Shown in pieces: positions 7,797 through 25,678 of a DNA stretch of 64,000 nt. The DNA is from Escherichia coli (lineage in GTDB: Bacteria > Pseudomonadota > Gammaproteobacteria > Enterobacterales > Enterobacteriaceae), in the NCBI RefSeq assembly GCF_001677475.2, contig NZ_CP015229.1, one strand, 5' to 3'. Within the stretch, counting starts at the first letter, position 1; every line of letters starts with the position of its first letter. Made by a program: the position numbers and the translations under genes. The notes beneath the pieces were generated by a model. It worked only from the letters and a program-made list of their open reading frames with translations. It had not been told where the DNA came from and searched no databases.

Positions 7797-7899
7797 GCCC
7801 CTCGCCCTCCACTTAATTTCCTGTAATGGCGGTCTGGTTGATAAGCCATGAAACAAGATTGCCACACCTTAAGTGCAGCCCTGGTGCCTGTCGGCACTG

Positions 7900-8170
7900 C
7901 GATGAAAGAACTAAATGATGCCGCCATACCCTGATCCTTTCAGGGTGGTAGGGGTATAAAGACGCGCCTGTACTCTACCTGACGCTTCCGGGCAACCCAC
8001 TTCCCACCGAAGTTGTTGGTATTGACTGACTGGCTGGTCTTCTGGCTTAGCGTCATCCTCACCCGACCTTCCCAATCTCGCGATCAGTGGCATTTTCGGG
8101 TTTGTCAGCATTACAGCAGCGGGGGCTGCGAGGGATTTTCACCCTCTTCCCAGGCACAAATGTGCCACAC
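7900..8170 (-). promoter_or_regulatory. Cobalamin (adenosylcobalamin) riboswitch, cob-operon leader type
   Basis: Minus strand reads ...GCCTGGGAAGAGGGTGAAAATCCCTCGCAGCCCCCGCTGCTGTAATG...GCCACTG...GGGAAGG...AAGCCAGAAGACCAGCC (B12-box) = conserved cobalamin aptamer core. Confidence 0.85.
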
Positions 8171-8277
8171 CTGTCAGCGTATGTTATGAGCTGATTTCAC
8201 TTTTCCCATAACAGGTAAATAACGTTAATTATTCATTCCAGCGTTTATTTAAACCTTCCCTTTTTTTAGCATTTACT

Positions 8278-9192
8278 CTATACCGTTTCCATCGCCGCAT
8301 TTTCACTCACTTGCTGTCGATACACCTGCGGCGTAACCTGATAAGTCTGACGAAAAACTTTGCAAAAATAACTGGTTTGTGAAAAACCTAAATTACGCGC
8401 AATGCTGGCGATGCTCCAGTCGCTATGGCACAGTAACTCACGAGCGCTGGCCATCCGTTGTTGGTTTACCCACGCATTAAACCCGATTCCATGGTATTTC
8501 TTGAATAACTTACTGAAATAATAAGGGCTTAGATAAACATGCGAGGCGACATCTTCCAGACGCAAATCGTCTGATAAATGCGCATCAATATAGCGTAAAG
8601 CTTTTTTCATTTTATTGTCGTGGGGACCAGGCGCACGAGTCTGGCGCACCGAATCTGACTGAGATTTGTTCTCTTTAATAACCACAAAATTGAGTTGTTT
8701 TTTGAGGCAATTTTCTACAATCAACTTCAACAAATCAGCAGAGGCCATAACTCTTGAGTAATCCATCTCAGGGACTTTGCGAAATTCATTAAGTAATTCG
8801 GGATCTGCCTGCCAGCAATCATCGACATTCAGAATATCGACCAAATCGACATCATCATTACGCAGACGAACTTGCCCGCACAATACAAAACCGACTAAAT
8901 GCCCGGCGATTACCAGTGGAATAGAGAAATCGGTTAATCCGGCATGACAGCGATAAATACAAGGCTGATCGGATTTAGAGGCTTCCAGGCCCCCACAACG
9001 ATCGCTCATGCGACATCGAGTGCTTAGCTGAGGGTGTTGCCGCATCAACTGACAAAATGGAGTGAAGTTAAACAGCTCGGAAATTTCATCGCCGTGAATA
9101 TTGACCACGACAACCGCAAGGCTGGTCGCCTGCGCAAAATCCTGCGCGATTTTATTAATGAGTTCTGAATTAAGTGTCGCCGCAGAAATCAT
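8278..9192 (-). CDS. pocR: AraC-family regulator of the pdu/cob regulon
   Basis: 304 aa; C-terminal AraC-type HTH; matches Salmonella PocR as I recall it. Confidence 0.9.
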   Translation of the reverse strand: MISAATLNSELINKIAQDFAQATSLAVVVVNIHGDEISELFNFTPFCQLMRQHPQLSTRCRMSDRCGGLEASKSDQPCIYRCHAGLTDFSIPLVIAGHLVGFVLCGQVRLRNDDVDLVDILNVDDCWQADPELLNEFRKVPEMDYSRVMASADLLKLIVENCLKKQLNFVVIKENKSQSDSVRQTRAPGPHDNKMKKALRYIDAHLSDDLRLEDVASHVYLSPYYFSKLFKKYHGIGFNAWVNQQRMASARELLCHSDWSIASIARNLGFSQTSYFCKVFRQTYQVTPQVYRQQVSENAAMETV

Positions 9193-9394
9193 GATAAAAC
9201 CTCCCAGTTAATTTATTGTTATAGCAAAACAATTGTTTTACATTTAATCTTCACATCATCCTTGATGATTTACTGACGAGAAGCACAAAGGACAATAACA
9301 AAAGCCTCCGTGAAGCGGGAGACTTTTTAATAAGTTCGGAAAGCAGATCACAAACAGTAAAAAAATAAACGTTTATAACTGCCAGATTATTTCG

Positions 9395-10204
9395 TTATTC
9401 GCTGATTTCTTTAGGCGTTACACTATTGACAGGTAAATTCTTTGCAATGAGATAGCGATAAATCGCCGCACCAACACATGCGCCAATGATCGGTGCAATA
9501 ATGGGTACAATGAAATAAGGAATATTGCGTCCACCAGTCATCGCAATTTCCCCCCAACCCGCAAGCCAGGTGAAAAATTTAGGTCCAAAATCACGCGCTG
9601 GATTCATGGCAAAACCGGTTAATGGTCCGGTAGAAGCACCAATAACAGCAACCAGAATACCAATTAGTAAAGGCGCAAGCGGTCCTTTGGGTACGCCATT
9701 ACCGTCATCGGTCAACGCCATAATCAACCCCATTAACATGGACGTTATGACCACTTCGACCAACGCAGCTTGCCATACATTAATCGCCGCTGCCGGATAA
9801 GTACTGAAGATACTGGCGAGTTGTAAACTTTCTGCACTACCACGCACCATATTGTGAGCAGATTCAAAATCGGTAAACAAACTGCTGTATAGAGAATATG
9901 CCAGAACCGCACCACCAAAGGCACCCGCTAATTGCGCCACACAAAATGGCAGCACTTTACGGGCTGGGAAAGAGGCAAACAGCCACAGAGCAATGGTAAC
10001 TGCCGGGTTGAGATGAGCGCCGGAAATACCTGCCGTAAGGTAAACAGCAAGCGAAATCCCTAACCCCCAAATGATACAAATTTCCCACAGTCCCAGACTT
10101 GCCCCGGCAACTTTCAGGGCGCACAAACAACCAATGCCAAAAAAGAGGAACAGTCCGGTGCCTAAAAACTCGGCAACGCATTGCGCCTTGAGTGAATCAT
10201 TCAT
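9395..10204 (-). CDS. pduF: Propanediol diffusion facilitator (MIP/aquaglyceroporin family)
   Basis: MNDSLKAQCVAEFLGTGLFLFFG...; two NPA motifs (HLNPAVT, MNPARDF); start taken at MNDSL. Confidence 0.9.
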   Translation of the reverse strand: MNDSLKAQCVAEFLGTGLFLFFGIGCLCALKVAGASLGLWEICIIWGLGISLAVYLTAGISGAHLNPAVTIALWLFASFPARKVLPFCVAQLAGAFGGAVLAYSLYSSLFTDFESAHNMVRGSAESLQLASIFSTYPAAAINVWQAALVEVVITSMLMGLIMALTDDGNGVPKGPLAPLLIGILVAVIGASTGPLTGFAMNPARDFGPKFFTWLAGWGEIAMTGGRNIPYFIVPIIAPIIGACVGAAIYRYLIAKNLPVNSVTPKEISE

Positions 10205-10716
10205 AGTGACACCTTCTTTACGGAGTTTTTCTTTATCAGCCAACTATGCGCTGATTGTTGTGTATATCGAGCGCAACTATAAAAAATTGCTCTGCAGAAA
10301 ATATTGCCAACATGCATGACAGACTCGTGTAAAAATCGTTCTAACATAGCAAATTATTGTCATTGCCGAAGCATGCAACACAGCGTTAATCAGTGTTGAA
10401 AGTAATAATTACTGTCAAACTTTCACAATAAAAAATTGTCATCATGATATAATAAAATTTAAACAAATATCACAATTCCCTTCCGCCAACCAAACCCAAC
10501 GAAATTTTATCCGCGATTAACCCCCTCAACCAACGCAATTAATTCACATTGAAACATCCACAAAATAACCAAGAAATTAATAACATATAGTTTATAAAAG
10601 CAATTTTATAATATTTGCCCTCTATTAATTTTTCTCATTAGCCGATTAAGTCAGCCATTCTTTTTCCTCGCTTTTTTTTATAGTCATATCGTCAAAAAAA
10701 TCCAGGCGAGGTCTTT
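10205..10716. promoter_or_regulatory. Divergent pduF / pduA control region
   Basis: 512-bp AT-rich intergenic region between divergent pduF and pduA with direct repeats of CAACCAA-like motifs. Confidence 0.6.
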
Positions 10717-11001
10717 ATGCAACAAGAAGCGTTAGGAATGGTAGAAACCAAAGGCTTAACTGCCGCCATAGAGGCCGCAGACGCCATGGTGAAGTCGGCA
10801 AATGTTTTGCTGGTCGGCTACGAAAAAATAGGTTCCGGGCTGGTGACAGTCATCGTTCGTGGTGATGTCGGGGCGGTAAAAGCGGCAACAGACGCAGGTG
10901 CCGCAGCTGCGCGTAACGTCGGCGAAGTAAAAGCCGTACACGTTATTCCCCGCCCACATACCGATGTCGAAAAAATCTTACCAAAGGGAATTAACCCATG
11001 A
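10717..11001 (+). CDS. pduA: Microcompartment shell protein PduA (BMC-H)
   Basis: 94 aa [30 protein letters not shown]..., matching Salmonella PduA as I recall it. Confidence 0.97.
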
Positions 11002-11810
11002 GCAGCAATGAACTGGTCAAACAGATCATGGCGCAGGTCATCGCTCGCGTAGCGACGCCAGAGCATGAGGTTCTCCCGAAAACCACTCATCAAATACGAG
11101 AGACGGCTATGGCAGAAAAAAGCTGCACGTTAACAGAATTTGTTGGCACCGCTATTGGCGACACTGTAGGTCTGGTCATTGCGAACGTTGATAGCGCCCT
11201 GTTGGACGCGATGAAACTTGAAAAACGCTATCGTTCCATTGGCATTCTGGGTGCGCGTATTGGCGCAGGGCCACACATTATGGCCGCTGATGAAGCGGTA
11301 AAAGCCACCAACACTGAAGTTATTAGCATTGAACTTCCTCGGGATACTAAAGGCGGTGCCGGACATGGCTCATTGATCCTCTTAGGTGGCAACGATGTTT
11401 CCGACGTGAAACGCGGTATTGAAGTCGCCCTGAAAGAACTCGATCGGACCTTTGGCGATGTCTATGCCAACGAAGCCGGACATCTTGAGCTGCAATATAC
11501 CGCCCGCGCCAGCTATGCACTGGAAAAAGCGTTTGGAGCACCATTGGGACGGGCTTGCGGCGTTATTGTCGGCGCTCCGGCTGCGGTGGGTGTTCTGATG
11601 GCCGACACCGCGCTGAAGTCCGCCAATGTGGATGTCGTGGCATACAGCTCCCCCGCTCAAGGCACCAGCTACAGCAACGAAGTCATTCTGATTATCTCGG
11701 GTGACTCCGGCGCAGTCCGCCAGGCGGTCATCTCCGCACGCGAAATCGGTAAAACCGTGCTTTCGACTCTCGGCGATACACCGAAAAACGATCGCCCTTC
11801 CTACATCTGA
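10998..11810 (+). CDS. pduB: Microcompartment shell protein PduB (tandem BMC); internal PduB' start near 11109
   Basis: 270 aa [14 protein letters not shown]... with internal start [14 protein letters not shown]. Confidence 0.95.
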
Positions 11811-11828
11811 ATTCTCTGAGGCAGATTT

Positions 11829-13493
11829 ATGAGATCGAAAAGATTTGAAGCACTGGCAAAACGCCCGGTCAACCAGGACGGTTTCGTTAAAGAGTGGATT
11901 GAAGAAGGCTTCATTGCGATGGAAAGCCCGAACGATCCTAAACCGTCAATCAAAATTGTTAACGGCGTCGTTACCGAACTGGATGGAAAACCCGCCAGTC
12001 AGTTTGACCTGATCGACCACTTTATCGCCCGCTACGGCATCAATCTCGCGCGCGCAGAGGAAGTCATCGCGATGGATTCGGTAAAACTGGCCAATATGTT
12101 GTGCGATCCAAATGTCAAACGTAGCAATATCGTTCCCCTTACCACAGCAATGACGCCTGCAAAAATAGTCGAAGTAGTTTCGCAGATGAACGTGGTAGAG
12201 ATGATGATGGCGATGCAGAAAATGCGCGCCCGTCGAACACCATCACAACAGGCTCACGTCACCAACGTCAAAGATAACCCGGTACAAATTGCCGCCGACG
12301 CAGCTGAAGGCGCATGGCGCGGGTTTGATGAACAGGAAACCACCGTTGCCGTTGCTCGCTATGCCCCGTTCAACGCCATCGCCCTGCTGGTCGGCTCACA
12401 GGTGGGACGCCCGGGCGTCTTGACCCAGTGTTCACTGGAAGAAGCCACCGAACTGAAACTCGGTATGTTAGGCCACACCTGTTACGCCGAAACAATTTCT
12501 GTCTATGGTACAGAACCTGTTTTCACCGATGGCGATGACACCCCGTGGTCAAAAGGATTTCTCGCGTCATCCTATGCTTCTCGCGGCTTAAAAATGCGCT
12601 TTACTTCCGGCTCTGGCTCTGAAGTACAGATGGGTTACGCGGAAGGTAAATCAATGCTTTATCTCGAGGCTCGTTGCATTTACATCACCAAAGCCGCAGG
12701 CGTTCAGGGCCTGCAGAGTGGTTCGGTAAGCTGCATCGGTGTTCCATCAGCTGTGCCATCAGGCATCCGCGCGGTATTAGCGGAAAACTTAATTTGCTCA
12801 TCGCTGGACCTGGAATGCGCCTCCAGTAATGACCAGACCTTTACCCACTCGGATATGCGCCGTACAGCACGTTTCCTGATGCAGTTTCTGCCAGGTACCG
12901 ACTTTATCTCTTCCGGTTTTTCCGCTGTGCCGAACTACGACAACATGTTTGCTGGTTCAAACGAAGATGCTGAAGACTTCGATGATTACAACGTCATTCA
13001 GCGTGACCTGAAGGTTGATGGCGGGCTGCGACCAGTACGCGAAGAAGATGTTATCGCTATCCGCAATAAAGCCGCTCGCGCTTTACAGGCTGTCTTTGCC
13101 GGTATGGGACTACCGCCTATTACCGATGAAGAAGTCGAAGCGGCAACCTATGCCCACGGTTCGAAAGATATGCCTGAGCGCAATATTGTGGAAGACATTA
13201 AGTTCGCCCAGGAGATTATCAATAAAAACCGTAACAGCCTGGAAGTGGTGAAAGCCCTGGCGCAAGGCGGTTTTACCGATGTCGCCCAGGCCATGCTCAA
13301 CATGCAAAAAGCAAAACTGACCGGCGATTATCTCCATACCTCAGCCATCATCGTCGATGACGGACAAGTGCTCTCTGCGGTCAATGACATCAATGATTAC
13401 GCCGGACCGGCTACAGGTTACCGCCTGCAAGGGGAACGCTGGGAAGAGATCAAAAATATTCCCGGTGCACTTGATCCCAACGAAATTGACTAA
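11829..13493 (+). CDS. pduC: B12-dependent propanediol dehydratase, large subunit
   Basis: 554 aa MRSKRFEALAKRPVNQDGFVKEWIEEG... Confidence 0.97.
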   Translation: MRSKRFEALAKRPVNQDGFVKEWIEEGFIAMESPNDPKPSIKIVNGVVTELDGKPASQFDLIDHFIARYGINLARAEEVIAMDSVKLANMLCDPNVKRSNIVPLTTAMTPAKIVEVVSQMNVVEMMMAMQKMRARRTPSQQAHVTNVKDNPVQIAADAAEGAWRGFDEQETTVAVARYAPFNAIALLVGSQVGRPGVLTQCSLEEATELKLGMLGHTCYAETISVYGTEPVFTDGDDTPWSKGFLASSYASRGLKMRFTSGSGSEVQMGYAEGKSMLYLEARCIYITKAAGVQGLQSGSVSCIGVPSAVPSGIRAVLAENLICSSLDLECASSNDQTFTHSDMRRTARFLMQFLPGTDFISSGFSAVPNYDNMFAGSNEDAEDFDDYNVIQRDLKVDGGLRPVREEDVIAIRNKAARALQAVFAGMGLPPITDEEVEAATYAHGSKDMPERNIVEDIKFAQEIINKNRNSLEVVKALAQGGFTDVAQAMLNMQKAKLTGDYLHTSAIIVDDGQVLSAVNDINDYAGPATGYRLQGERWEEIKNIPGALDPNEID

Positions 13494-13502
13494 GGGTGAG
13501 AA

Positions 13503-14171
13503 ATGGAAATTAACGAAAAATTACTGCGTCAGATTATCGAAGACGTGCTGGCAGAAATGCAAACCAGCGACAAGTCCGTTTCATTTCGCGCACCTGTCTC
13601 TGCAACTGCCTTTTCCGCGCCAGATACCGGAAATTTTCTGACCGAAATTGGCGAAGCACAACAAGGCACTCAGCAAGATGAAGTCATTATTGCTGTAGGC
13701 CCGGCGTTCGGCCTGGCGCAAACCGTCAATATCATCGGTATTCCGCATAAAAACATCTTGTGCGAAGTGATTGCCGGTATCGAAGAAGAAGGCATTAAAG
13801 CCCGTGTGATTCGCTGCTTTAAATCGTCCGATGTCGCATTCGTAGCAGTCGAAGGCGATCGTCTTAGTGGTTCAGGTATTGCTATCGGTATTCAGTCGAA
13901 AGGTACAACGGTTATCCACCAGCAAGGTCTTCCTCCCTTGTCTAACCTGGAACTTTTCCCACAAGCGCCTTTGTTGACGCTGGATACTTATCGTCAGATT
14001 GGCAAAAACGCCGCGCGTTATGCGAAGCGTGAGTCTCCACAACCGGTGCCGACCCTCAACGATCAAATGGCGCGGCCGAAATACCAGGCCAAATCTGCCA
14101 TTTTGCATATTAAAGAGACGAAGTACGTGGTCACTGGCAAAAAACCGCAAGAACTGCGCGTGACGTTTTAA
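13503..14171 (+). CDS. pduD: Propanediol dehydratase, medium subunit
   Basis: 222 aa; position and similarity. Confidence 0.95.
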
Positions 14172-14185
14172 CAAAGGAAACCTTC

Positions 14186-14704
14186 ATGAATACCGATGCA
14201 ATTGAGTCGATGGTCAGGGACGTGTTGAATCGCATGAACAGTTTACAGGATGCAGCTCCTGTTTCTGCGGTCCCCAACGCGTCAATACAGAGCGCCAAAG
14301 TGACGGATTACCCGCTGGCAAATAAACATCCGGAATGGGTTAAAACAGCGACCAATAAAACGCTCGACGATTTCACCCTGGAAAATGTGCTAAGCGATAA
14401 CGTCACCGCCCAGGATATGCGCATTACCCCTGAAACATTGCGTATTCAGGCTGCGATTGCCAGAGATGCTGGTCGCGATCGTCTGGCGATGAATTTTGAA
14501 CGCGCCGCTGAGCTTACCTCAGTACCGGATGATCGCATCCTCGAAATCTACAATGCGTTACGCCCTTATCGTTCAACTAAGCAAGAACTTATTGCCATTG
14601 CTGACGATCTTGAACGGCGTTATCAGGCCCAAATTTGTGCTGCATTTGTCCGTGAAGCTGCGGAACTTTATGTCGAGCGCAAAAAACTGAAAGGCGACGA
14701 TTAA
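14186..14704 (+). CDS. pduE: Propanediol dehydratase, small subunit
   Basis: 172 aa; position and similarity. Confidence 0.95.
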   Translation: MNTDAIESMVRDVLNRMNSLQDAAPVSAVPNASIQSAKVTDYPLANKHPEWVKTATNKTLDDFTLENVLSDNVTAQDMRITPETLRIQAAIARDAGRDRLAMNFERAAELTSVPDDRILEIYNALRPYRSTKQELIAIADDLERRYQAQICAAFVREAAELYVERKKLKGDD

Positions 14705-14713
14705 GGACGAACT

Positions 14714-16546
14714 ATGCGATATGTAGCAGGCATTGATATCGGCAACTCATCAACAGAGGTTGCGCTGGCAACGCTCAGTGCAACTGGAGAGTTGTCGTTC
14801 GTGAGTAGCGCCCTGGCGGAAACCACAGGAATTAAAGGTACGTTGCGTAACGTCCATGGTATTCAGGAGGCGCTCGCACAGGCAACGAAAAAAGTCGGCA
14901 TCAATGTTAGCGATATTTCGCTTATTCGTATCAATGAAGCAACCCCGGTCATTGGTGATGTGGCGATGGAAACCATCACTGAAACTATCATCACCGAATC
15001 AACCATGATCGGTCACAACCCGAAAACTCCGGGCGGAGTGGGGCTGGGCGTAGGGCTCACCATCACTCCGCAAGAGTTATTAACACGCCCGGCGGACACA
15101 CCTTACATTCTGGTGGTGTCATCGGCATTTGATTTTGCCGATATCGCGAAGATGATAAACGCCTCCGTACGAGCCGGATATCAGCTGACTGGCGTTATTC
15201 TACAACGCGACGATGGTGTGCTGGTCAATAACCGCCTGGAAATTCCTTTACCTATTGTGGATGAAGTCCTCTACATCGATCGTATTCCGCTCGGCATGCT
15301 GGCTGCAATTGAAGTTGCCGTTCCCGGGAAAGTTATCGAAACCCTGTCTAACCCGTATGGGATTGCCACCGTTTTCGCCCTCAATGCTGAAGAGACTAAA
15401 AATATTGTTCCTGTCGCGCGGGCGCTAATCGGCAACCGTTCAGCAGTGGTAGTGAAAACGCCCTCTGGCGACGTTAAAGCCCGTTCGATACCCGCCGGAA
15501 ATATCGAACTGCTTTCTGCCGGGCGCACAACGCGGGTTGATGTAGCTGCTGGTGCCGATGCCATTATGAAAGCGGTCGGTGAGTGCCCAAAACTGGAAAA
15601 CGTGACAGGAGAACCAGGCACCAACATCGGCGGAATGCTGGAACATGTTCGCCAGACCATGGCGGAACTGACCAACAAACCCAGCAACGAAATTTTTATT
15701 CAGGATTTGCTGGCGATAGATACCTCTGTCCCCGTCAGCGTAACCGGCGGTCTGGCAGGTGAATTTTCACTGGAACAGGCTGTGGGTATTGCTTCTATGG
15801 TGAAATCCGACCGTCTGCAAATGGCGATGATCGCCAGTGAAATTAAGCAAAAACTGCATGTTGATGTTCAGGTCGGAGGCGCAGAAGCAGAAGCCGCCAT
15901 TCAGGGGGCCTTGACTACCCCAGGAACCACACGTCCACTGGCAATTCTGGACTTAGGTGCAGGCTCTACCGATGCCTCCATCATCAATCAGAAAGGGGAA
16001 ATCGTTGCCACTCACCTTGCGGGAGCGGGCGACATGGTAACGATGATTATCGCTCGTGAGCTGGGCTTAAATGATCGTTATCTGGCAGAAGAAATCAAAA
16101 AGTACCCGTTGGCAAAAGTAGAAAGCCTGTTCCACTTACGCCATGAAGATGGCAGCGTTCAGTTCTTCCCTACTCCCCTATCCCCTCATGTATTCGCCCG
16201 CGTTTGTGTGGTGAAACCTGACGAACTGGTGCCTATTCCCGGTGATTTGACGCTGGAAAAAGTACGCGCTGTTCGTCGCAGTGCGAAAGAACGTGTCTTC
16301 GTAACCAATGCCCTGCGCGCGCTACGTCAGGTAAGCCCTGCCGGAAATATTCGCGACATTCCGTTCGTCGTTCTGGTGGGTGGTTCTTCGCTGGATTTCG
16401 AAGTACCGCAATTGGTCACCGACGCGCTGGCACATTATCGACTGGTCGCCGGGCGGGGGAATATCCGTGGTAGCGAAGGTCCGCGCAACGCGGTAGCTAC
16501 TGGGCTACTCATCGCCTGGCACAAGGAGTCGATTCATGGAAAGTAA
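14714..16546 (+). CDS. pduG: Diol dehydratase reactivase, large subunit
   Basis: 610 aa MRYVAGIDIGNSSTEVALA... (actin-like ATPase fold). Confidence 0.95.
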   Translation: MRYVAGIDIGNSSTEVALATLSATGELSFVSSALAETTGIKGTLRNVHGIQEALAQATKKVGINVSDISLIRINEATPVIGDVAMETITETIITESTMIGHNPKTPGGVGLGVGLTITPQELLTRPADTPYILVVSSAFDFADIAKMINASVRAGYQLTGVILQRDDGVLVNNRLEIPLPIVDEVLYIDRIPLGMLAAIEVAVPGKVIETLSNPYGIATVFALNAEETKNIVPVARALIGNRSAVVVKTPSGDVKARSIPAGNIELLSAGRTTRVDVAAGADAIMKAVGECPKLENVTGEPGTNIGGMLEHVRQTMAELTNKPSNEIFIQDLLAIDTSVPVSVTGGLAGEFSLEQAVGIASMVKSDRLQMAMIASEIKQKLHVDVQVGGAEAEAAIQGALTTPGTTRPLAILDLGAGSTDASIINQKGEIVATHLAGAGDMVTMIIARELGLNDRYLAEEIKKYPLAKVESLFHLRHEDGSVQFFPTPLSPHVFARVCVVKPDELVPIPGDLTLEKVRAVRRSAKERVFVTNALRALRQVSPAGNIRDIPFVVLVGGSSLDFEVPQLVTDALAHYRLVAGRGNIRGSEGPRNAVATGLLIAWHKESIHGK

Positions 16547-16886
16547 AGAGCGTGCACCAGCCATCGTCGTCATGGAGATCGGTGACTGTATCACTACATG
16601 GGATGAAGTGCTTCTTGGCATTGAAGAGGAAGGTATTCCCTTTCGCATTCAACACATTCCGTCAGGTGAAGTTATCGATAGCGCCTGGCTGGCTGCTCGT
16701 CAATCTCCCCTGTTGGTTGGCATTGCCTGCGATCAGGAAAAACTGATTGTACATTACAAAAACTTACCGGCATCAGCGCCACTGTTTACGCTGATGTATC
16801 AACAAGATAACCATGCCCGGCGCAGCATCGGCACTAACGCTGCCCGCCTGGTAAAAGGGATTCCCTTCCGGGAACTCCACTCATAA
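16536..16886 (+). CDS. pduH: Diol dehydratase reactivase, small subunit
   Basis: 116 aa; overlaps the pduG stop by 11 nt. Confidence 0.9.
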
Positions 16887-16905
16887 TCCACAGGAGAAAC
16901 GCAGT

Positions 16906-17181
16906 ATGAACAACGCACTAGGACTGGTTGAAACAAAAGGGTTAGTTGGCGCAATTGAAGCTGCAGATGCCATGGTTAAATCCGCCAACGTGCAACTGGT
17001 TGGCTATGAAAAGATTGGTTCGGGTCTGATTACGGTGATGGTCCGCGGTGATGTTGGTGCAGTAAAGGCCGCCGTGGATGCGGGGAGCGCTGCGGCAAGC
17101 GCAGTTGGCGAAGTGAAATCCTGCCATGTCATCCCGCGCCCACACAGTGATGTTGAGGCTATTTTACCTAAATCGGCATAA
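16906..17181 (+). CDS. pduJ: Microcompartment shell protein PduJ (BMC-H)
   Basis: 91 aa [29 protein letters not shown]... Confidence 0.95.
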
Positions 17182-17204
17182 CCCCATTTGCTAAGGAGCA
17201 CAGC

Positions 17205-17627
17205 GTGAAGCAATCACTGGGATTACTTGAAGTCAGTGGTCTGGCTCTCGCCATCAGTTGCGCAGACGCTATGGCAAAAGCCGCGTCCATCACGCTGGTT
17301 GGCCTTGAGAAGACCAATGGCTCAGGCTGGACGCTCATCAAAATCACCGGTGACGTCGCCTCGGTTAATGCGGCGATCGCGACGGGAGCCAGTTTCGCCG
17401 GACAGCGAAATGGCCTTGTCGCACACAAAGTGATTGCCCGCCCGGGAGACGGCATTCTGCCCCACACAACTGAAGCATTGACCGTGACGGTTGAAACAAG
17501 CAAAACACCAGCAACAACCGTCACCTCAGAGATTATCAGTTGTAATTTGTGTCTTGACCCGGCATGTCAGCGGCAAAAAGGTGAGCCCCGCTCACTTTGC
17601 CTGTACGCCAATAAGCGAGGGGAGTAG
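17205..17627 (+). CDS. pduK: Microcompartment shell protein PduK (BMC-H with C-terminal Cys-rich tail)
   Basis: 140 aa; BMC domain plus CNLCLDPAC motif. Confidence 0.9.
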   Translation: MKQSLGLLEVSGLALAISCADAMAKAASITLVGLEKTNGSGWTLIKITGDVASVNAAIATGASFAGQRNGLVAHKVIARPGDGILPHTTEALTVTVETSKTPATTVTSEIISCNLCLDPACQRQKGEPRSLCLYANKRGE

Positions 17628-17629
17628 CA

Positions 17630-18262
17630 GTGGATAAACAAACCCTGCAGGAAACAGTGAGCCAGATTCTGGATGAGATGCGCGAGCGCCCTATCCCACT
17701 GGGCGTTTCCAGTCGCCATATTCATCTTTCAACAGCGGATTATTTGCGTCTTTTTCCTGAACAACCGATTAGCGAGAAAAAGCCGTTAATGCAACCTGGC
17801 CAATTCGCTGCTGAACAGGTTGTTACGCTGGAGGGACCAAAAGGCAAATTGCACAACGTTCGCTTGTTGGGGCCGCTACGCAATGCAAGCCAGGTGGAAA
17901 TTTCCCGGACGGACGCCAGAACGTTAGGGATCACCGCCCCGCTACGCATGTCAGGCGATCTCAGCGGCACTCCGGGGATTCGTTTGATAAGCCCATTTGC
18001 GGAACTGGAGATCACATCTGGCGTCATTGTCGCGCAACGGCATATTCATATGTCTCCGCTGGATGCCCTGATTTATGGCGTTACGCATGGCGATAAATTG
18101 GCGGTTGCCATTGAAGGTGATGAGCGAGGACTGATATTCGAAAACGTCGCTGTTCGCGTCTCTCCGGATATGCGTCTTGAAATGCATATTGATACCGATG
18201 AGGCCAACGCCGCAGGCGCTGATAGCCCTGACGTTTTTGCCACACTGGTGTCAGTGCCATGA
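17630..18262 (+). CDS. pduL: Phosphate propanoyltransferase
   Basis: 210 aa; PduL/EutD-like duplicated fold. Confidence 0.9.
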   Translation: MDKQTLQETVSQILDEMRERPIPLGVSSRHIHLSTADYLRLFPEQPISEKKPLMQPGQFAAEQVVTLEGPKGKLHNVRLLGPLRNASQVEISRTDARTLGITAPLRMSGDLSGTPGIRLISPFAELEITSGVIVAQRHIHMSPLDALIYGVTHGDKLAVAIEGDERGLIFENVAVRVSPDMRLEMHIDTDEANAAGADSPDVFATLVSVP

Positions 18263-18750
18263 ATAACATGCTGATGCAACGTATTGTTGACGAAGTGGTT
18301 TTTCGCCTTAAACAACGTGCGGGAAAAGCACTCGTGCTGACTGTTTTTCAACTGCGAGACGCCAGCGTTCAAGAGAGCGTTCATCAGTATGCGTCATTAC
18401 AAATCCGATATGTCGATCTGCCGTTGTTACGACAACTTGCGGAGAACAAAACGTCAGATCGAGCAGCAATTCAGATACACGAAGCGTTAGCCTGGGGATT
18501 GCACATTCAATTGTCGTTGCAGCGTCATTTCCTGAACGCCATTGAATTGAAGACTCTCGCCCGTCTACCGCTAAGCTGGTGCGACGAGCAAGGGCAACCG
18601 ATCTACCTTCATCGTGATCGACTTTTAAGTTATGCCGATATTGCACAGTTAAGCTCGGGAATACTGGTGTTACAGCGAAAATGTTGTGTGACCGCACTGG
18701 CTCGTGAAGCGGCAATTACCCGAAATATTCAGTTAATCAGGCAGGAGTAA
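18259..18750 (+). CDS. pduM: Microcompartment structural protein PduM
   Basis: 163 aa; position between pduL and pduN. Confidence 0.85.
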   Translation: MNNMLMQRIVDEVVFRLKQRAGKALVLTVFQLRDASVQESVHQYASLQIRYVDLPLLRQLAENKTSDRAAIQIHEALAWGLHIQLSLQRHFLNAIELKTLARLPLSWCDEQGQPIYLHRDRLLSYADIAQLSSGILVLQRKCCVTALAREAAITRNIQLIRQE

Positions 18751-18753
18751 CCT

Positions 18754-19029
18754 ATGCATCTGGCTCGAGTCACTGGCGCGGTAGTATCCACGCAAAAATC
18801 ACCTTCTCTGATCGGGAAAAAACTGCTGCTGGTTCGCCGGGTCAGTGCTGACGGCGAACTGCCTCTCACGCCATTAACCGGCGACGAAGTTGCCGTTGAT
18901 TCCGTCGGCGCAGGCGTTGGTGAGTTGGTACTCCTCAGCAGTGGTTCCAGTGCCAGACATGTGTTTTCAGGCCCTAACGAGGCCATCGACCTGGCAGTGG
19001 TCGGCATTGTCGATACGCTTTCGCGCTAA
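18754..19029 (+). CDS. pduN: Microcompartment vertex protein PduN (BMC-P)
   Basis: 91 aa [15 protein letters not shown]... EutN/CcmL family. Confidence 0.9.
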
Positions 19030-19040
19030 GGAGCTGAAAG

Positions 19041-20048
19041 ATGGCAATTTATACCCGAACAGGTGATTCAGGAAGTACGTCTTTATTTACCGGACAGCGC
19101 GTCAGCAAAACTCATCTACGTGTCGAAACCTATGGCACGCTGGATGAACTGAACGCGACACTCAGTCTGTGTTATTGCGCCACCGCCATCGAAAGCCATC
19201 GCATCTTACTGGAAGCTATTCAACAACAGATATTTTGGTTTAGCGCCGAACTCGCCAGTGAAAGCGAACAGCCGTCAGCGCAGCAGCGTTACATCGGTAC
19301 GGAAGAAATTGCCGCGCTGGAAAACGCGATCGATAGCGCAATGAACGCCGTCCCCCCAGTTCACAGCTTCATTCTGCCTGGTCGATGTGAAGCCGCGAGC
19401 CGCATGCATTTCGCCCGCACAGTGGCTCGACGGGCTGAAAGACGTCTGGTTGAACTGACAACGGAAACCACCGTCCGGAAGGTTTTGCTGCACTATATCA
19501 ACCGACTTTCCGATTGTCTGTATGCCCTCGCCCGCGTGGAAGACAACGTTGCTCATCAAAACCTGATGATTCAGGAAATCACAAAACGTTATCACGAAGC
19601 CAACCATACACCAGCATTGAAGGAACGCACAATGCCGCTCACTTTTCAGGATCTTCACCAGCTCATTCGTAGTGCGGCAATGCGCGCAGATGAACTGCAT
19701 ATTCCCGTTGTCATCAGCATTGTTGATGCCAACGGAACAGAAAGTGTTACCTGGCGGATGCCTGATGCCCTGTTGGTCAGCAGTGAACTGGCACCGAAAA
19801 AAGCCTGGACCGCCGTGGCGATGAAAACGGCAACCCACAAACTTGCTGATACCGTGCAACCCGGCGCGCCGCTTTACGGGCTCGAAAGCCATATGCAAGG
19901 CAAAGTCGTCACTTTTGGTGGCGGCTTCCCCCTCTGGCGTGACGGAATATTGCTTGGCGGGCTTGGCATCAGCGGCGGTAGCGTTGAACAAGACATGGAT
20001 ATTGCTCAAAGCGCAATGGCGGCAATTAACGTGGGAGTAAACCAATGA
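19041..20048 (+). CDS. pduO: ATP:cob(I)alamin adenosyltransferase (PduO type, with C-terminal DUF336-like domain)
   Basis: 335 aa MAIYTRTGDSGSTSLFTGQRVSK... Confidence 0.95.
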   Translation: MAIYTRTGDSGSTSLFTGQRVSKTHLRVETYGTLDELNATLSLCYCATAIESHRILLEAIQQQIFWFSAELASESEQPSAQQRYIGTEEIAALENAIDSAMNAVPPVHSFILPGRCEAASRMHFARTVARRAERRLVELTTETTVRKVLLHYINRLSDCLYALARVEDNVAHQNLMIQEITKRYHEANHTPALKERTMPLTFQDLHQLIRSAAMRADELHIPVVISIVDANGTESVTWRMPDALLVSSELAPKKAWTAVAMKTATHKLADTVQPGAPLYGLESHMQGKVVTFGGGFPLWRDGILLGGLGISGGSVEQDMDIAQSAMAAINVGVNQ

Positions 20049-21430
20049 ATAACTCTGAATTAGAAACACTGATCCGCAATATTCTGCGCGAGCAACTTGT
20101 CCCCGCTACACCACGAACGCAAAGAAACGCTATTTTCCAGACTGTTGATGAAGCGGTCTGCGCAGCACACCAGGCCTTTTTACGCTTTCAACAGTGCCCG
20201 CTGAAAACCCGTAGCGCCATTATCAGCGCCATTCGCGAAGAATTAATGCCCCGCCTTACCGAACTGGCAGAAGAAAGCGCCAAAGAAACGGGGATGGGAA
20301 ATAAAGAAGATAAGTACCTAAAAAACAAAGCGGCACTCGATAACACGCCAGGAATTGAAGATTTAACCACCACTGCACTAACCGGTGATGGTGGCATGGT
20401 TTTGTTTGAATACTCCCCGTTTGGGGTTATTGGCTCGGTCACGCCGAGCACCAACCCCACGGAAACCATCATTAACAACAGCATCAGCATGCTGGCAGCA
20501 GGTAATAGCGTCTACTTCAGTCCACACCCGGGAGCCAAATACGTTTCGTTAAAACTGATTACCACAATCGAAGACATCGCGTTTCGCTGTAGTGGCATTC
20601 ATAACCTGATCGTTACCGTATCTGAACCGACCTTTGCTGCTACCGAACAGATGATGGCGCACCCTAAAATCAGCGTTCTGGCGATTACCGGCGGTCCGGG
20701 GATCGTCGCCATGGGAATGAAAAGTGGCAAGAAAGTGATTGGTGCCGGAGCGGGTAACCCTCCGTGTATCGTCGATGAAACGGCGGATATTGTGAAAGCC
20801 GTCGAAGATATCATCAACGGCGCTTCATTTGATTACAACCTGCCGTGTATCGCTGAAAAAAGCCTGATTGTCGTAGCATCAGTGGCAGAGTATTTAATTC
20901 AGCAGATGCAAAGTTTTGGCGCGCTTCTTCTTAACTATGAGCAAACGGAGAAATTGCGTGCAATTTGCCTGCCAGACGGTAGCGCCAACAAAAAACTGGT
21001 TGGGAAAAGCCCATCAGCCTTGCTGGAAGCGGCAGGCCTCCCTTTGCCCGCAAAAGCGCCGCGCCTACTGATTGCTGTTGTCGACGCCAATGATAGTTGG
21101 GTTACTTGTGAACAACTGATGCCAATGCTGCCCATTGTGAAGGTCAACGATTTTGATAGCGCTCTCGCCCTGGCGCTGAAAGTGGAAGACGGCTTGCACC
21201 ACACGGCAATTATGCACTCGCAGAACGTCTCACGGCTCAACCTTGCCGCACGCGTTATGCAAACCTCAATCTTTGTCAAAAACGGCCCCTCCTGGGCGGG
21301 TATTGGCGTCGGCGGCGAAGGCTTTACGACCTTTACCATTGCAACACCGACCGGAGAAGGGACAACGTCAGCACGGACTTTTGCCCGCTCACGACGCTGC
21401 GTGTTAACCAGCGGCTTTTCAATTCGCTAG
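20045..21430 (+). CDS. pduP: CoA-acylating propionaldehyde dehydrogenase
   Basis: 461 aa aldehyde dehydrogenase family with N-terminal encapsulation-peptide-like helix (MNNSELETLIRNILREQL). Confidence 0.95.
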   Translation: MNNSELETLIRNILREQLVPATPRTQRNAIFQTVDEAVCAAHQAFLRFQQCPLKTRSAIISAIREELMPRLTELAEESAKETGMGNKEDKYLKNKAALDNTPGIEDLTTTALTGDGGMVLFEYSPFGVIGSVTPSTNPTETIINNSISMLAAGNSVYFSPHPGAKYVSLKLITTIEDIAFRCSGIHNLIVTVSEPTFAATEQMMAHPKISVLAITGGPGIVAMGMKSGKKVIGAGAGNPPCIVDETADIVKAVEDIINGASFDYNLPCIAEKSLIVVASVAEYLIQQMQSFGALLLNYEQTEKLRAICLPDGSANKKLVGKSPSALLEAAGLPLPAKAPRLLIAVVDANDSWVTCEQLMPMLPIVKVNDFDSALALALKVEDGLHHTAIMHSQNVSRLNLAARVMQTSIFVKNGPSWAGIGVGGEGFTTFTIATPTGEGTTSARTFARSRRCVLTSGFSIR

Positions 21431-21440
21431 AGAAACGGAA

Positions 21441-22553
21441 ATGAATACTTTTTCACTGCAGACGCGTTTATACAGCGGACCGGGAAGTCTCAAGGTACTT
21501 AGCCGTTTCTCTCATAAACACATCTGGATTGTTTGCGACGTCTTTCTGGCACGTTCACCACTCATTGACACGTTGCATCAGGCGCTGCCCGACAGTAATC
21601 GTCTTAGTATTTTTAGCGAAATAACGCCCGACCCAACTATCCAGACCGTGGTGAAAGGCATTGCGCAAATGCAGACTTTACGCCCGGATGTGGTTATCGG
21701 TTTTGGCGGCGGTTCTGCCCTGGACGCCGCAAAAGCGATTGTCTGGTTCGGTCGCCAGTGTGGCATTGAAATTGAAACCTGCGTAGCCATTCCTACCACC
21801 AGCGGTACCGGTTCCGAAGTGACCAGTGCTTGTGTCATCAGCGATCCTGAGAAAGGGATTAAATATCCCCTTTTCGATAATGCACTTTATCCGGATATCG
21901 CGATCCTTGATCCATCTCTGATCGTCAGCGTGCCACCGGCGATAACGGCCAATACCGGGATGGATGTTTTAACCCATGCGCTTGAAGCTTATGTTTCTCC
22001 TCGCGCCAGCGACTTCACGGATGCACTGGTCGAAAAAGCCGTGCAAATTGTTTTTCAATACCTGCCCACTGCAGTGAAAAAAGGCGATTGTCTTGCCACC
22101 CGTGGCAAAATGCATAATGCATCGACGCTTGCAGGAATGGCCTTTAGCCAGGCCGGACTCGGTTTAAACCATGCAATTGCTCATCAACTCGGCGGACAGT
22201 TTCATCTGCCGCACGGACTGGCGAATGCGCTCCTGCTCACGGCAGTTATCCGCTTTAATGCTGGCGATCCGCGCACAGCCAAACGCTATGCCCGGCTGGC
22301 GAAAACGTGCCATTTATGCCCGGACAACGCCAATGACACCGCCAGCCTGAATGCACTTATTCAACATATTGAGCAGCTTAAAACAACCTGTACGCTGCCG
22401 ACTCTTACCAATGCGCTGAAAGAAAAAAAAGCAGAATGGTCAATACGCATACCAGATATGGTTCAGGCGGCACTGGCGGATGCAACGTTGCGTACCAACC
22501 CGCGTGCGGCTGATGCCTCCGCTATTGCAGAACTGCTCGAGGAGTTGTTATGA
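21441..22553 (+). CDS. pduQ: 1-Propanol dehydrogenase (iron-containing ADH)
   Basis: 370 aa Fe-ADH family. Confidence 0.93.
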   Translation: MNTFSLQTRLYSGPGSLKVLSRFSHKHIWIVCDVFLARSPLIDTLHQALPDSNRLSIFSEITPDPTIQTVVKGIAQMQTLRPDVVIGFGGGSALDAAKAIVWFGRQCGIEIETCVAIPTTSGTGSEVTSACVISDPEKGIKYPLFDNALYPDIAILDPSLIVSVPPAITANTGMDVLTHALEAYVSPRASDFTDALVEKAVQIVFQYLPTAVKKGDCLATRGKMHNASTLAGMAFSQAGLGLNHAIAHQLGGQFHLPHGLANALLLTAVIRFNAGDPRTAKRYARLAKTCHLCPDNANDTASLNALIQHIEQLKTTCTLPTLTNALKEKKAEWSIRIPDMVQAALADATLRTNPRAADASAIAELLEELL

Positions 22554-23893
22554 ACGTCGAGTTAACCTCCTGCGACGACCAGACCATCCGCGAGCGAGTA
22601 CAGGCAGCAGGTGTCGTGGGTGCAGGCGGCGCAGGTTTTCCAACCCATATTAAGCTACAAGCGCGTGTTGACACTTTCCTGGTGAATGCGGCGGAATGCG
22701 AACCAATGTTGAACGTGGATCAACAGTTAATGGCGCAGCAAGCCAGTCGCCTGCTTCGCGGTGTTCACTATGCGATGAAAGCCACCGGGGCCAGTAGCGG
22801 AATCATCGCGCTGAAAGAGAAATATCAACTGGCAATAAACGCACTCACACCACTGTTACCACCGGATATCCGCCTGCATATTTTGCCCGACGTTTACCCC
22901 GCAGGAGACGAAGTGCTGACCATCTGGATGGCAACTGGTCGCCGCGTTCCACCCGCTGCATTACCCGTTAGCGTCGGTGTGGTGGTCAATAATGTTCAAA
23001 CCGTACTTAATATTGCCAGAGCCGTCGAGCAACAGTATCCAGTGACGCGCCGCACACTCACCGTTAATGGTGCAGTGGCGAAACCAATAACGGTAACCGT
23101 CCCCATCGGCATGTCTTTACGTGAAGTCCTGGCGCTGGCGGGCGGCGCAACAGTGGATGCTCCTGGTTTTATCAATGGCGGACCGATGATGGGAAGTTTG
23201 ATCACATCGCTCGACACACCAGTCAGCAAAACCACTGGCGGCTTGCTGGTTTTACCCAACTCTCATTCACTGATCCAACGTCGAATGCAGAATGACCGCA
23301 GCGTACTTGCCGTCGCGAAAACTGTTTGTGAGCAATGCCGCTTGTGTACCGATCTCTGCCCACGTCATTTAATCGGTCACGAACTGGCACCCCATTTGTT
23401 AGTACGTGCGGTTAACTACCAACAGCTCGCTACGCCGCAACTGTTACTGACGGCGCTCACCTGTTCAGAGTGCAACGTCTGCGCCAGCGTCGCCTGTCCG
23501 GTAGGAATTTCACCAATGCGCATAAACCGCCTGCTTAAGCAGGAATTACGCGCACAAAATCTCCGTTACGAAGGTACCTTAAATCCTGCAGATCCCATGG
23601 CAAATTATCGACTGATTCCCGTAAAACGGCTGGTAACCAGACTTGGCTTAACCCCGTGGTATCAGGATGCGCCATTGTCTGAACAGGTGCCTCAGACCGA
23701 AAAAGTGACGTTATTGTTACGCCAGCACATCGGTGCCAGCGCAATTGCGTGTGTACAAAAAGGCGATCGCGTCGTTCATGGGCAATGTGTAGGTCAAATT
23801 CCACACGGCACATTAGGTGCCCCCATTCATGCCAGTATTGATGGCATGGTCAGCGATGTGACAGAAAACGCAATTACGCTTGTGAGAGGTTAA
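22550..23893 (+). CDS. pduS: Cobalamin reductase PduS (RnfC/Nqo1-like Fe-S flavoprotein)
   Basis: 447 aa with two 4Fe-4S Cys clusters ([25 protein letters not shown]). Confidence 0.93.
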
Positions 23894-23895
23894 CC

Positions 23896-24450
23896 ATGTC
23901 GAAAGCGGTAGGTATTTTAGAACTTAGCAGTATCGCGAAAGGGATGGAAACCGGCGACGCCATGCTGAAAAGCGCCAACGTTGAGTTACTGGTCAGCAAA
24001 ACGCTATGCCCCGGAAAATTTCTGCTGATGCTCGGTGGCGATGTGGGCGCGGTGCAACAGGCCATCAATAGCGGATCTTCCCTTGCTGGTGAAATGCTGG
24101 TCGACAGTCTTGTCCTGCCGAATATTCATCCCAGCCTCCTTTCTGCAATCAGCGGACTTAACCATGTTGAACAGCACCGGGCTGTCGGCGTAGTCGAAAC
24201 CTGGAGTGTCGCCGCCTGCATTGACGCAGCCGATTGTGCTGTCAAAGCTGCGAATGTCATTCTCGTTCGCGTACATATGGCTTTTGGCATTGGTGGTAAA
24301 TGCTACATGGTGGTTGCTGGCGATATTTCAGATGTTAATAACGCGGTCTCTGTTGCCAGCGAGCGTGCGGGGGAAAAAGGTTTGTTGGTCTATCGGTCAG
24401 TGATTGCCCGTCCACATGAAGCCATGTGGCGTCAGATGGTGGAGGGATAA
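23896..24450 (+). CDS. pduT: Microcompartment shell protein PduT (tandem BMC)
   Basis: 184 aa [29 protein letters not shown]... Confidence 0.93.
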
Positions 24451-24800
24451 TGACAACTCAGCACACAACTGAACGGATGATTCAGGAATATGTCCCTGGT
24501 AAGCAGGTCACGCTGGCACATGTCATCGCCAATCCAGGGAAGGATCTGTTTAAGAAATTGGGTTTACCAGACACCGTTTCTGCTATTGGCATTCTGACGA
24601 TTACCCCCAGCGAAGCATCTATCATCGCATGTGATATCGCCACAAAATCAGGCGCTGTAGAGATCGGTTTTCTTGATCGTTTTACCGGTGCCGTAGTGCT
24701 GACTGGTGATGTTTCTGCGATTGAATATGCACTTAGCCAGGTTACCCGTACGCTGGGTGAAATGATGCGCTTTACCGCTTGCCCCATTACGCGGACCTGA
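24450..24800 (+). CDS. pduU: Microcompartment shell protein PduU (permuted BMC)
   Basis: 116 aa from [39 protein letters not shown]; ATG overlaps the pduT TAA (TAATG); tracker ORF starts 8 codons upstream. Confidence 0.9.
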
Positions 24801-24804
24801 CGTT

Positions 24805-25248
24805 ATGCAACGTATGATGCTCATCGGCCCCAGCCAGTGCGGAAAAACGTCGCTCACGCAATGTCTGCGTGGCGAAAATATTCATTATCAGAAAACGCAG
24901 GCAATCGTCTGGTCCCCGACCACCATTGATACACCAGGCGAATACCTCGAAAACCGCAGCCTCTACAGTGCTCTGTTGGTCAGCGCCTGCGAAGCGGACA
25001 TTATCGCCCTGGTGCTTAATGCGGACGCACCGTGGTCCCCTTTTTCGCCAGGCTTTACCTCGTCAATGAATCGCCCGGTCATTGGAGTAGTAACCAAAGC
25101 AGATTTAGCCAGCATGGAACAAATATCTTTGGTGAAATGTTGGTTACGGGAAGCTGGAGCGCACAACGTGTTAGTAACCAGTGCGGTTAATAACAATGGA
25201 GTTACAGAACTTTTTGCCTTGCTGCATACAGAAGATGTCTGTCGCTAA
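24805..25248 (+). CDS. pduV: PduV (Ras-like GTPase-family microcompartment-associated protein)
   Basis: 147 aa with P-loop [10 protein letters not shown]. Confidence 0.9.
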
Positions 25249-25348
25249 TTTCGATAGGTTATCAGATGGGAATGATGACTTTGATACACAGAAAAGAATC
25301 AATGAGCAATGAGGGTTGCCGGGCAACCCTCATTGAATAAAACAGGAA

Positions 25349-25678
25349 TTACTTCGCTTCGCCGTTTTTCATTTCGCCCATAGCTTTCAGCTTTTTGGAG
25401 ATATCGCGGCGTTCTTTGGAGAGCTCGGCATTTTTGATGATGTAATCGTCAACACGATCTTCATAGTCACCTTTCATGCTGGCGATGATGCCCTGGATTG
25501 CTTCAACGCTCATCCCCGGCTTGATGTAATCGCTCAGGTTGTCCAGCAGCAGGACGCGCTTCTGGTTGTCACGGATCTTTTTCTCAACGTCCTGAATTTC
25601 ACGTTGCAGTTTGTTCTTACGACGGAACAGACGAACAAATTCCAGTACGTCCTGGAATGAAGGCTTGGTAGTTTCCAT
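25349..25678 (-). CDS. yeeX: DUF496 family protein YeeX
   Basis: [41 protein letters not shown]...; start taken at METTK. Confidence 0.9.

Follow-up and report, generated by a model that had tools for sequence, protein, structure and literature searches.

The propanediol-utilization locus between cobUST and tmaR in an Escherichia coli chromosome: a probably inherited cob-pdu region reduced by old deletions

A 64-kb stretch of an Escherichia coli chromosome (contig NZ_CP015229.1; the whole stretch is referred to here as the window) carries, between the corrinoid-salvage genes cobUST and tmaR (yeeX), an intact copy of the propanediol-utilization (pdu) microcompartment locus that is already known in E. 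coli. Its presence here is not new; the locus is a known accessory trait and has already been annotated in hundreds of genomes. What this analysis adds is a matter of framing: the pdu-positive arrangement is the older Escherichia state, the configuration found in K-12 is a deletion or replacement, and the deletions of cbi genes are common to several Escherichia species. The locus is ancestral and often lost, not inserted, and it is very probably the standard Escherichia version of the cob-pdu region, inherited vertically at the ancestral cobUST-tmaR site and reduced by old deletions that removed cbiA to cbiP, the region upstream of the cobalamin riboswitch, and pduW-pduX. The pdu-positive state is taken to be the older one because of the base composition of the block, the nature of its borders, the site of the locus in Salmonella, the synonymous divergence (dS) between Escherichia species, and the scars of pduV and cbiG that remain in genomes without the block.

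As the original prediction, made from the sequence alone, had stated, pocR, pduF, and pduABCDEGHJKLMNOPQSTUV form a complete set between cobU and tmaR. The set is also intact, with families and lengths as expected. A map of open reading frames (ORFs) and NCBIfam scans place the set within positions 8278-25248, every pdu gene is assigned to its expected NCBIfam family, and all 23 reading frames are intact, with neither a frameshift nor an internal stop. The lengths of all of these frames are identical to those annotated by RefSeq in E. coli UTME-8 (NZ_CP157115.1). The same genes, order, lengths, and both junctions are found in pdu-positive E. coli, namely the adherent-invasive E. coli (AIEC) strain LF82, CUMT8, cluster M of sequence type (ST) 372, and UTME-8, and in such strains, the operon has been published as expressed and required for growth on 1,2-propanediol (PMC6379400, PMC9220930). 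In LF82, expression of pduB to pduV has been reported, with bile salts inducing most of these genes (PMC6379400), while CUMT8 without pduC fails to grow on 1,2-propanediol, and pdu was reported in ~50% of AIEC as opposed to 20% of non-AIEC E. coli strains (PMC9220930). The locus is accordingly a recognized fitness- and virulence-associated trait of gut E. coli, enriched in AIEC from Crohn's disease and in dog-associated ST372. Relative to the nearest complete pdu-positive E. coli genome, the window shows ~1.6% allelic divergence and also has an insertion of the IS21 family of insertion sequences (IS) in cbl, outside the locus.

Position and history of the locus

The original prediction described the locus as an island in an E. 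coli-type backbone and contrasted a Salmonella-like block with E. coli-type flanks, but neither description is borne out. The profile of guanine-plus-cytosine (GC) content that it proposed as a check shows no compositional step, with 0.504 for positions 7866-25348 and 0.493 and 0.512 for the flanks. For pduA-V, the GC content is 0.518 and that at third codon positions (GC3) is 0.516, compared with 0.495-0.507 and 0.479-0.529, respectively, in the flanks, so by neither measure is the base composition atypical. No integrase or IS ORF adjoins the pdu block, and the search for direct or inverted repeats flanking its borders returned only short chance matches. A tRNA-Asn gene lies ~4 kb to the left of the block, beyond ldtA and cobTSU. 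Between Escherichia species, dS is 0.09-0.6 for the pdu genes and 0.12-0.49 for cobUST, about equal, and the ratio of nonsynonymous to synonymous divergence (dN/dS) for pdu is 0.00-0.16, mostly 0.03-0.1, with pduH at 0.18-0.35. Purifying selection on the pdu genes is strong.

Comparison with Salmonella enterica, which the original prediction had called for together with pdu-positive E. coli, returned the same layout, with both junctions shared in E. coli and the right flank shared in Salmonella. The cob-pdu locus of Salmonella occupies the same site, beside the same tmaR-yeeA-sbmC-dacD flank, and has the same gene order from pocR to pduV, the B12 riboswitch after pocR, and the STnc230 small RNA (sRNA). 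It differs in having pduW (404 aa) and pduX (288 aa) between pduV and tmaR, both of which are absent from the window, where pduV ends at 25248 and tmaR starts 100 nt further on; in having cbiA-P, of which the window retains only a 44-codon cbiA relic (cbiA') and a 145-codon cbiG relic (cbiG'); and in ~230 nt between pocR and the riboswitch that are absent here. The 23 proteins align end to end with their Salmonella orthologues at 54-100% amino acid identity (75-85% over the full length for PduO, PduP, PduQ, and PduS), and their divergence from Salmonella is similar to that of two flank proteins, YeeA (78%) and SbmC (74%). At the nucleotide level, identity to Salmonella, Citrobacter, and Klebsiella is 72-91%, with none clearly closest, and a recent donor in any of these three genera was rejected on the basis of these values. 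For ST372 E. coli, the pdu operon has been reported as 77.5% identical to that of Salmonella LT2 (PMC9997745).

The history of the site can also be read from genomes that lack pdu, for which the reference set comprised 5,426 complete E. coli genomes. A query at the pduV end matches 5,417 of these, and in a sample taken at even spacing, the last 283 nt of pduV persist beside tmaR in most of the genomes without pdu, among them K-12 MG1655 and O157:H7. A query upstream of cobU matches 5,397 genomes, and ST131 together with most of the sampled pdu-negative genomes keeps the ~300 nt upstream of cobU (~305 nt, 7226-7530), including the 3' end of cbiG'. No clean empty site was found, as genomes without pdu keep truncated pduV and cbiG', fused directly to one another in strain GF47, and the deletion ends at one and the same place, window position 25066, in the majority of the pdu-negative genomes sampled. 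At the relic locus of K-12, the flanks are the same and cobUST is present, along with IS and CP4-44 prophage remnants and a 183-bp PduV-family ORF beside tmaR; unlike in the window, mobile-element DNA there replaces everything between mid-cbiG' and mid-pduV. The 7226-7530 stub of pdu-negative E. coli is ~91.5% identical to the window, whereas the adjacent cobU appears much closer, so that at this junction the divergence between pdu-positive and pdu-negative haplotypes is unusually high; over 851 nt spanning both the stub and cobU, the identity in ST131 is 95.8%.

Both junctions of the locus were found in 643 of the 5,426 complete genomes (~12%, about one in eight), and 636 genomes match a 19.5-kb query (window 7000-26500), counted where at least 80% of it matched in one place. 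Among these, UTME-8 is 98.4% identical over the 19.5 kb. Beyond E. coli, a scan for PocR with one genome per species recovered pocR, the riboswitch, cbiG', cobU, cobS, cobT, and ldtA in Escherichia whittamii and two other Escherichia lineages of species rank (L005-L007). In Escherichia albertii, the pduV-tmaR junction is as in the window, with no pduW or pduX, while an Escherichia fergusonii-like contig keeps pduW and lacks pduX, and dacD is also absent from it. The end of the operon is eroded stepwise, from pduW and pduX in Salmonella, through pduW only in the E. fergusonii-like contig, to neither in E. albertii and the window (regions compared: L084, 8437-9651; L083, 8001-8883; L082, 8438-10611). 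A more distant arrangement is seen in Escherichia sp. MOD1-EC7003 (L038), where a complete cbi operon, beginning cbiA-cbiG, follows the riboswitch (11374-18529) and the pdu and pocR DNA is 71-84% identical to the window, no closer than that of Citrobacter or Salmonella. A contig from a metagenome-assembled genome labelled Citrobacter sp. (L004, DXKH01000123.1) has pocR-pdu DNA mostly 98-99% identical to the window (range, 95.7-99.1%); this contig almost certainly comes from Escherichia and was assigned to a Citrobacter bin by mistake.

Relics of the cbi operon and the supply of corrinoids

The gap between pocR and cobU is only 1,052 nt long and contains a cobalamin riboswitch and two relic ORFs. 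The riboswitch aptamer, the full-length leader element of the cob operon, lies at 8015-8189 on the minus strand (Rfam RF00174, model positions 1-189, 109.5 bits against a gathering threshold of 31.5), and the same riboswitch is annotated by RefSeq in E. coli UTME-8. In the cbi-less lineages (E. whittamii, L006, and L007), it scores 109-111 bits, compared with 106.9 bits in Salmonella. Both the PocR regulator and the cobalamin riboswitch leader of the Salmonella-type regulon are present in the window. A minimum free energy fold of the leader (7880-8200) is not distinguishable from shuffled sequences (z = -0.83) and adds nothing to the Rfam match. The cbiA' relic, identified from the sequence and its alignment as a 44-codon ORF at 7793-7927 on the minus strand, begins at the original cbiA start codon (7927), and its first ~15 residues are CbiA-like (MAASFSSFIAVPTGT, compared with MAANFHAFVLAGTGS in Citrobacter). 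Position 7866, at which the original prediction had placed the start of the island, lies within this relic of the cob operon. The stop codon of cbiA' overlaps the start codon of cbiG' (ATGA), a 145-codon ORF at 7359-7796 on the minus strand that corresponds to the N-terminal third of the cobalt-precorrin-5A hydrolase CbiG, with a degenerate motif. As cbiG' gives no match in a Pfam scan even at an E value of 10, its homology to CbiG rests on the NCBIfam CbiG profile (positions 1-126 of 351, E value 1e-20, far below the cut-off), on BLASTP against residues 1-119 of Citrobacter CbiG (45% identity, E value 3e-25), and on synteny. In nucleotides, the start of cbiG' matches the start of cbiG in Citrobacter and Klebsiella, located ~6.3 kb downstream of their riboswitch, where cbiA, B, C, D, E, T, and F occupy the gap between the riboswitch and cbiG.

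Compared with a complete regulon, the locus thus shows four deletions, affecting the spacer between pocR and the riboswitch, cbiA to cbiF, the remainder of cbiG through cbiP, and pduW-pduX. From the pocR stop codon to the aptamer, the distance is 88 nt here and 83-89 nt across the cbi-less lineages, as opposed to 291-325 nt in Salmonella, Citrobacter, and Escherichia sp. MOD1-EC7003. The right end of the third deletion is placed by the standard order of cbi genes, as the loci retrieved for comparison reach only to cbiK, and its position is correspondingly provisional. When the cbiA' peptide and the short frames that separate the cbiG' homology from cobU were scanned with NCBIfam, no remnants of cbiP or cbiF were detected.

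The original prediction had described the locus as lacking cbi genes, with only cobUST present, and had drawn from this that the diol dehydratase depends on exogenous corrinoids. It is correct that the window holds no functional cbi gene, and no contiguous cbiA-cbiP lies between pocR and cobU, where Citrobacter has cbiA-K, but the riboswitch and the cbiA' and cbiG' relics had been overlooked. The dependence itself is well supported at the species level, because no cbiA-D or cbiG-K DNA was recovered from complete E. coli genomes: a 3.9-kb cbiA-D query from Escherichia sp. MOD1-EC7003 has no match in any of the 5,426, the 643 pdu carriers included (blastn, sensitive to roughly 65-70% identity), and a 3.25-kb cbiG-K query from Citrobacter has one marginal match of only 126 nt in the same set. 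That match corresponds to the ORF of a CbiG fragment in a different pdu island, in strain 48. It is likely, then, that the diol dehydratase depends on imported cobalamin or on imported cobinamide completed by CobUST.

The pdu cluster of E. coli strain 48 (NZ_CP166879.1; L085, 1-11700) is a second type of pdu cluster in E. coli and is likewise devoid of cbi genes. As in the window, pocR is followed by a B12 riboswitch and then by an ORF of ~144 aa for the N-terminal part of CbiG, although 1.3 kb of noncoding DNA separates this first riboswitch from the CbiG ORF. The cluster occupies a different position in the chromosome, next to iha, espI, and fragments of transposases, and a second B12 riboswitch and a copy of btuB follow in place of cobUST, so that this island carries B12 uptake rather than synthesis. 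Its CbiG fragment is 58% identical to intact Citrobacter CbiG and 40% identical to the relic in the window, and its PduV probably belongs to a separate protein cluster of 72% identity (P0030).

A B12 riboswitch has been kept intact ahead of the salvage genes, and it is worth considering whether it has been re-used. Among four Escherichia lineages (the window and L005-L007), the aptamer and expression platform are 91-98% identical and the adjacent relic ORFs are 80-85% identical in most pairs. Both cbiA' and cbiG' are open, with the same ATGA overlap, in all four lineages, and the indels in cbiG' amount to one in-frame codon. The dN/dS of cbiG' between these lineages is 0.40-0.61, which is relaxed but not neutral, and in a mutation simulation with the observed numbers of substitutions, all four cbiG' frames stayed open in 0.7% of trials (~0.007). 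This pattern suggests that the riboswitch still functions, and cobUST are the only downstream genes that remain as its targets. Selection may perhaps keep the riboswitch, cbiA', and the translationally coupled cbiG' as a B12-sensing leader of cobUST fed by read-through from pduF-pocR, although we regard this as rather doubtful. In Salmonella, the cob promoter lies upstream of the riboswitch, and as the region matching that promoter is missing here, the leader would be transcribed by read-through from pduF-pocR. With such read-through, propanediol would induce cobUST and B12 would repress them, and the open relic ORFs could relay the translational decision of the riboswitch to cobUST via polarity. 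If this were true, a salvage operon would have taken over the regulatory front end of a biosynthetic operon once 17 genes had been lost.

However, cobUST need not depend on the leader, because a promoter-like match lies just upstream of cobU and only that stretch is kept by pdu-negative strains. The match, TTGAGA-16-TATATT, resembles a sigma-70 promoter at 10 of 12 positions in a consensus scan and lies between the cbiG' stop codon and cobU (7327-7354, minus strand); it is a possible candidate for an internal cobU promoter, situated within the 305-nt stretch that is likewise retained in pdu-negative E. coli. Over 7100-10800, promoter and terminator matches were at or below the numbers expected from shuffled sequence and were treated as non-evidence, and this applies equally to the absence of a promoter-like site between pocR and the riboswitch and to one weak terminator-like hairpin within cbiA'. 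The conserved leader of riboswitch and relic ORFs ahead of cobUST is a minor curiosity, with a modest bearing on the regulation of corrinoid salvage in B12 auxotrophs.

Alternative histories of the locus

The insertion of a horizontally acquired Salmonella-type island into a typical E. coli chromosome is largely refuted, and we consider it highly improbable. It would fit the presence of the locus in only ~12% of complete E. coli genomes, the tRNA-Asn gene ~4 kb away, the gain and loss of pdu together with neighboring islands reported in a study of ST372 (PMC9997745), and the existence of a truly mobile, different pdu island in strain 48. Here, however, the borders show no compositional step, integrase, IS, or flanking repeats, the identity to Salmonella, Citrobacter, and Klebsiella singles out no close donor, the block and its flanks have equal dS between Escherichia species, Salmonella shares the site and right flank, and pdu-negative strains carry truncated pduV and cbiG' in place of an empty site. 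A subtler possibility is that the locus was lost and later regained by homologous recombination from a pdu-positive E. coli or other Escherichia into the ancestral site, which we judge unlikely, if less so than insertion. Recombination around the O-antigen/his region is common in E. coli, and this recombination-prone region lies nearby. The end-point shared by most of the sampled pdu-negative genomes implies that alleles could be exchanged through the flanks, and the ST372 study infers repeated gains, arguing for multiple acquisitions, so that the patchy distribution of the locus in E. coli could also reflect regain by recombination (PMC9997745). On the other hand, no mosaic boundary is visible, with the best identity to complete genomes about 98.4% for the pdu block, the right flank, and the left flank alike.

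Vertical inheritance followed by deletion, which we favor, has points against it besides this patchiness. The full cbi operon of Escherichia sp. MOD1-EC7003, together with its diverged pdu genes, complicates the order of events deep in the genus, and in no part of the window does the identity to a complete E. coli genome exceed 98.4%, so that its lineage, which may be a divergent E. coli or Shigella-type one, is unsampled there. For the same reason, and given that the window is a 64-kb part of the chromosome, cbi genes could in strict terms lie elsewhere in this genome. That the strain makes its own B12 with such genes, which would render the locus self-sufficient, is nevertheless scarcely credible and the least probable of the alternatives, in view of the searches of 5,426 complete genomes, which yielded nothing for cbiA-D and, for cbiG-K, a single marginal match of 126 nt; pduX, a gene required for de novo synthesis alone, has been deleted as well. 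Only marginally more credible is the notion that the locus is a decaying, nonfunctional remnant heading for loss like the cbi genes. While the locus has already been stripped of pduW, pduX, and every cbi gene, the entire block has been lost in the majority of E. coli, and PduK, PduS, and PduV are slightly shorter than their Salmonella counterparts, this is countered by 23 of 23 intact frames with lengths as in hundreds of genomes, by dN/dS values for pdu that are mostly below 0.1, and by the published pduC-dependent growth of E. coli on propanediol (PMC9220930). Inheritance with old deletions has a modest bearing on the long-standing account of enteric cob-pdu evolution as one of loss and reacquisition.

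Gene content, predicted pathway, and flanking genes

The regulatory and transport genes of the locus lie on the minus strand. PocR, the AraC-family activator of the pdu/cob regulon, is encoded at 8278-9192 (NF047788 PocR equivalog, 553.8 bits against a cut-off of 500), and pduF, for a propanediol diffusion facilitator of the MIP family, lies at 9395-10204 (TIGR00861, 224.4 bits; annotated as pduF by RefSeq). Between them, a match to the STnc230 sRNA occupies 9253-9336 on the plus strand (Rfam RF02075, 76.3 bits) and recurs in Salmonella and in other Escherichia loci; a terminator-like hairpin lies on the strand opposite this match (9327-9300, minus).

All of the genes from pduA to pduV lie on the plus strand. 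The shell genes include those for hexamer (PduA/J), tandem-domain (PduB/T), and pentamer vertex (PduN) proteins. The shell protein PduA (10717-11001) is identified by a BMC-domain match, as are PduJ (16906-17181), PduK (17205-17627), PduT (23896-24450), and PduU (24450-24800); the shell protein PduB (10998-11810) matches the PduB equivalog at 473.5 bits, and the vertex protein PduN (18754-19029) matches the EutN/CcmL family. The three subunits of the B12-dependent diol dehydratase, PduC (11829-13493; NF011979, 1068.7 bits), PduD (13503-14171; NF011616, 387.6 bits), and PduE (14186-14704; NF011971, 356.1 bits), all score above the NCBIfam cut-offs. The genes for cofactor maintenance are all present and comprise those for the diol dehydratase reactivase, pduG (14714-16546; TIGR04491, 961.6 bits) and pduH (16536-16886; by RefSeq annotation), the adenosyltransferase gene pduO (19041-20048; TIGR00636, 161.4 bits), and the cobalamin reductase gene pduS (22550-23893; RnfC-like; also annotated by RefSeq). 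The aldehyde-processing core is likewise present, consisting of the phosphate propanoyltransferase PduL (17630-18262; NF011652, 253.4 bits), the coenzyme A (CoA)-acylating propionaldehyde dehydrogenase PduP (20045-21430; NF011927, 712.2 bits), and the 1-propanol dehydrogenase PduQ (21441-22553), which is named PduQ by RefSeq and matches only models of related iron-containing alcohol dehydrogenases, all below their cut-offs. The remaining genes are pduM (18259-18750), assigned by NCBIfam and by full-length alignment to the Salmonella orthologue, and pduV (24805-25248), the last gene of the operon, assigned by NCBIfam.

By analogy with the studied Salmonella system for biochemistry and regulation, and with the published AIEC work for function in E. 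coli, PocR would sense 1,2-propanediol and switch on pduF-pocR and the pdu operon, and the diol would enter the cell through PduF. The shell would be built from PduA, B, J, K, N, T, U, and M, and inside it PduCDE, with adenosyl-B12, would form propionaldehyde, and the shell would confine this aldehyde by enclosing PduCDE, PduP, PduQ, and PduL. The last three of these enzymes would convert propionaldehyde to propionyl-CoA, 1-propanol, and propionyl-phosphate, respectively, and the propionyl-phosphate is presumably handled by housekeeping kinases, PduW being absent. PduGH, PduO, and PduS would repair and re-adenosylate the B12 cofactor. The corrin ring itself would not be made de novo; cobalamin or cobinamide would be imported, and the cobinamide would be completed by CobU, CobS, and CobT.

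The genes for this completion lie on the minus strand to the left of the locus: cobT, for the nicotinate-nucleotide:5,6-dimethylbenzimidazole phosphoribosyltransferase of corrinoid salvage (4849-5928; NF000996, 470.8 bits; position as in UTME-8); cobS, for adenosylcobinamide-guanosine diphosphate ribazoletransferase (5940-6683; TIGR00317, 301.6 bits; 247 codons, as in RefSeq); and cobU, for adenosylcobinamide kinase/guanylyltransferase (6680-7225; NF004469, 246.8 bits). The flanks proved to be arranged much as the original prediction listed them, with nac, tRNA-Asn (3721-3796), ldtA, and cobTSU on the left and, on the right, the conserved tmaR (25349-25678; NF003844/NF040881), yeeA, sbmC, dacD, and sbcB, followed by the his leader at 36339. 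The exception is the truncated cbl, of whose 316 profile positions an IS21-family element (window positions 1-1774) has left 1-202. Within this site (window 1-2375), the C-terminal part of IstA is encoded at 18-1022 and IstB at 1019-1774, and the junction between cbl and the element is not shared by any complete E. coli genome. Toward the far end of the window, an O-antigen cluster of low GC content (0.30-0.45) extends over ~44000-62700, with a JUMPstart element at 62574-62612 on the minus strand, and its wzx and wzy genes appear to be of the O36 family, as judged from the annotation of the best match (E. coli E06, only 98.1% identical).

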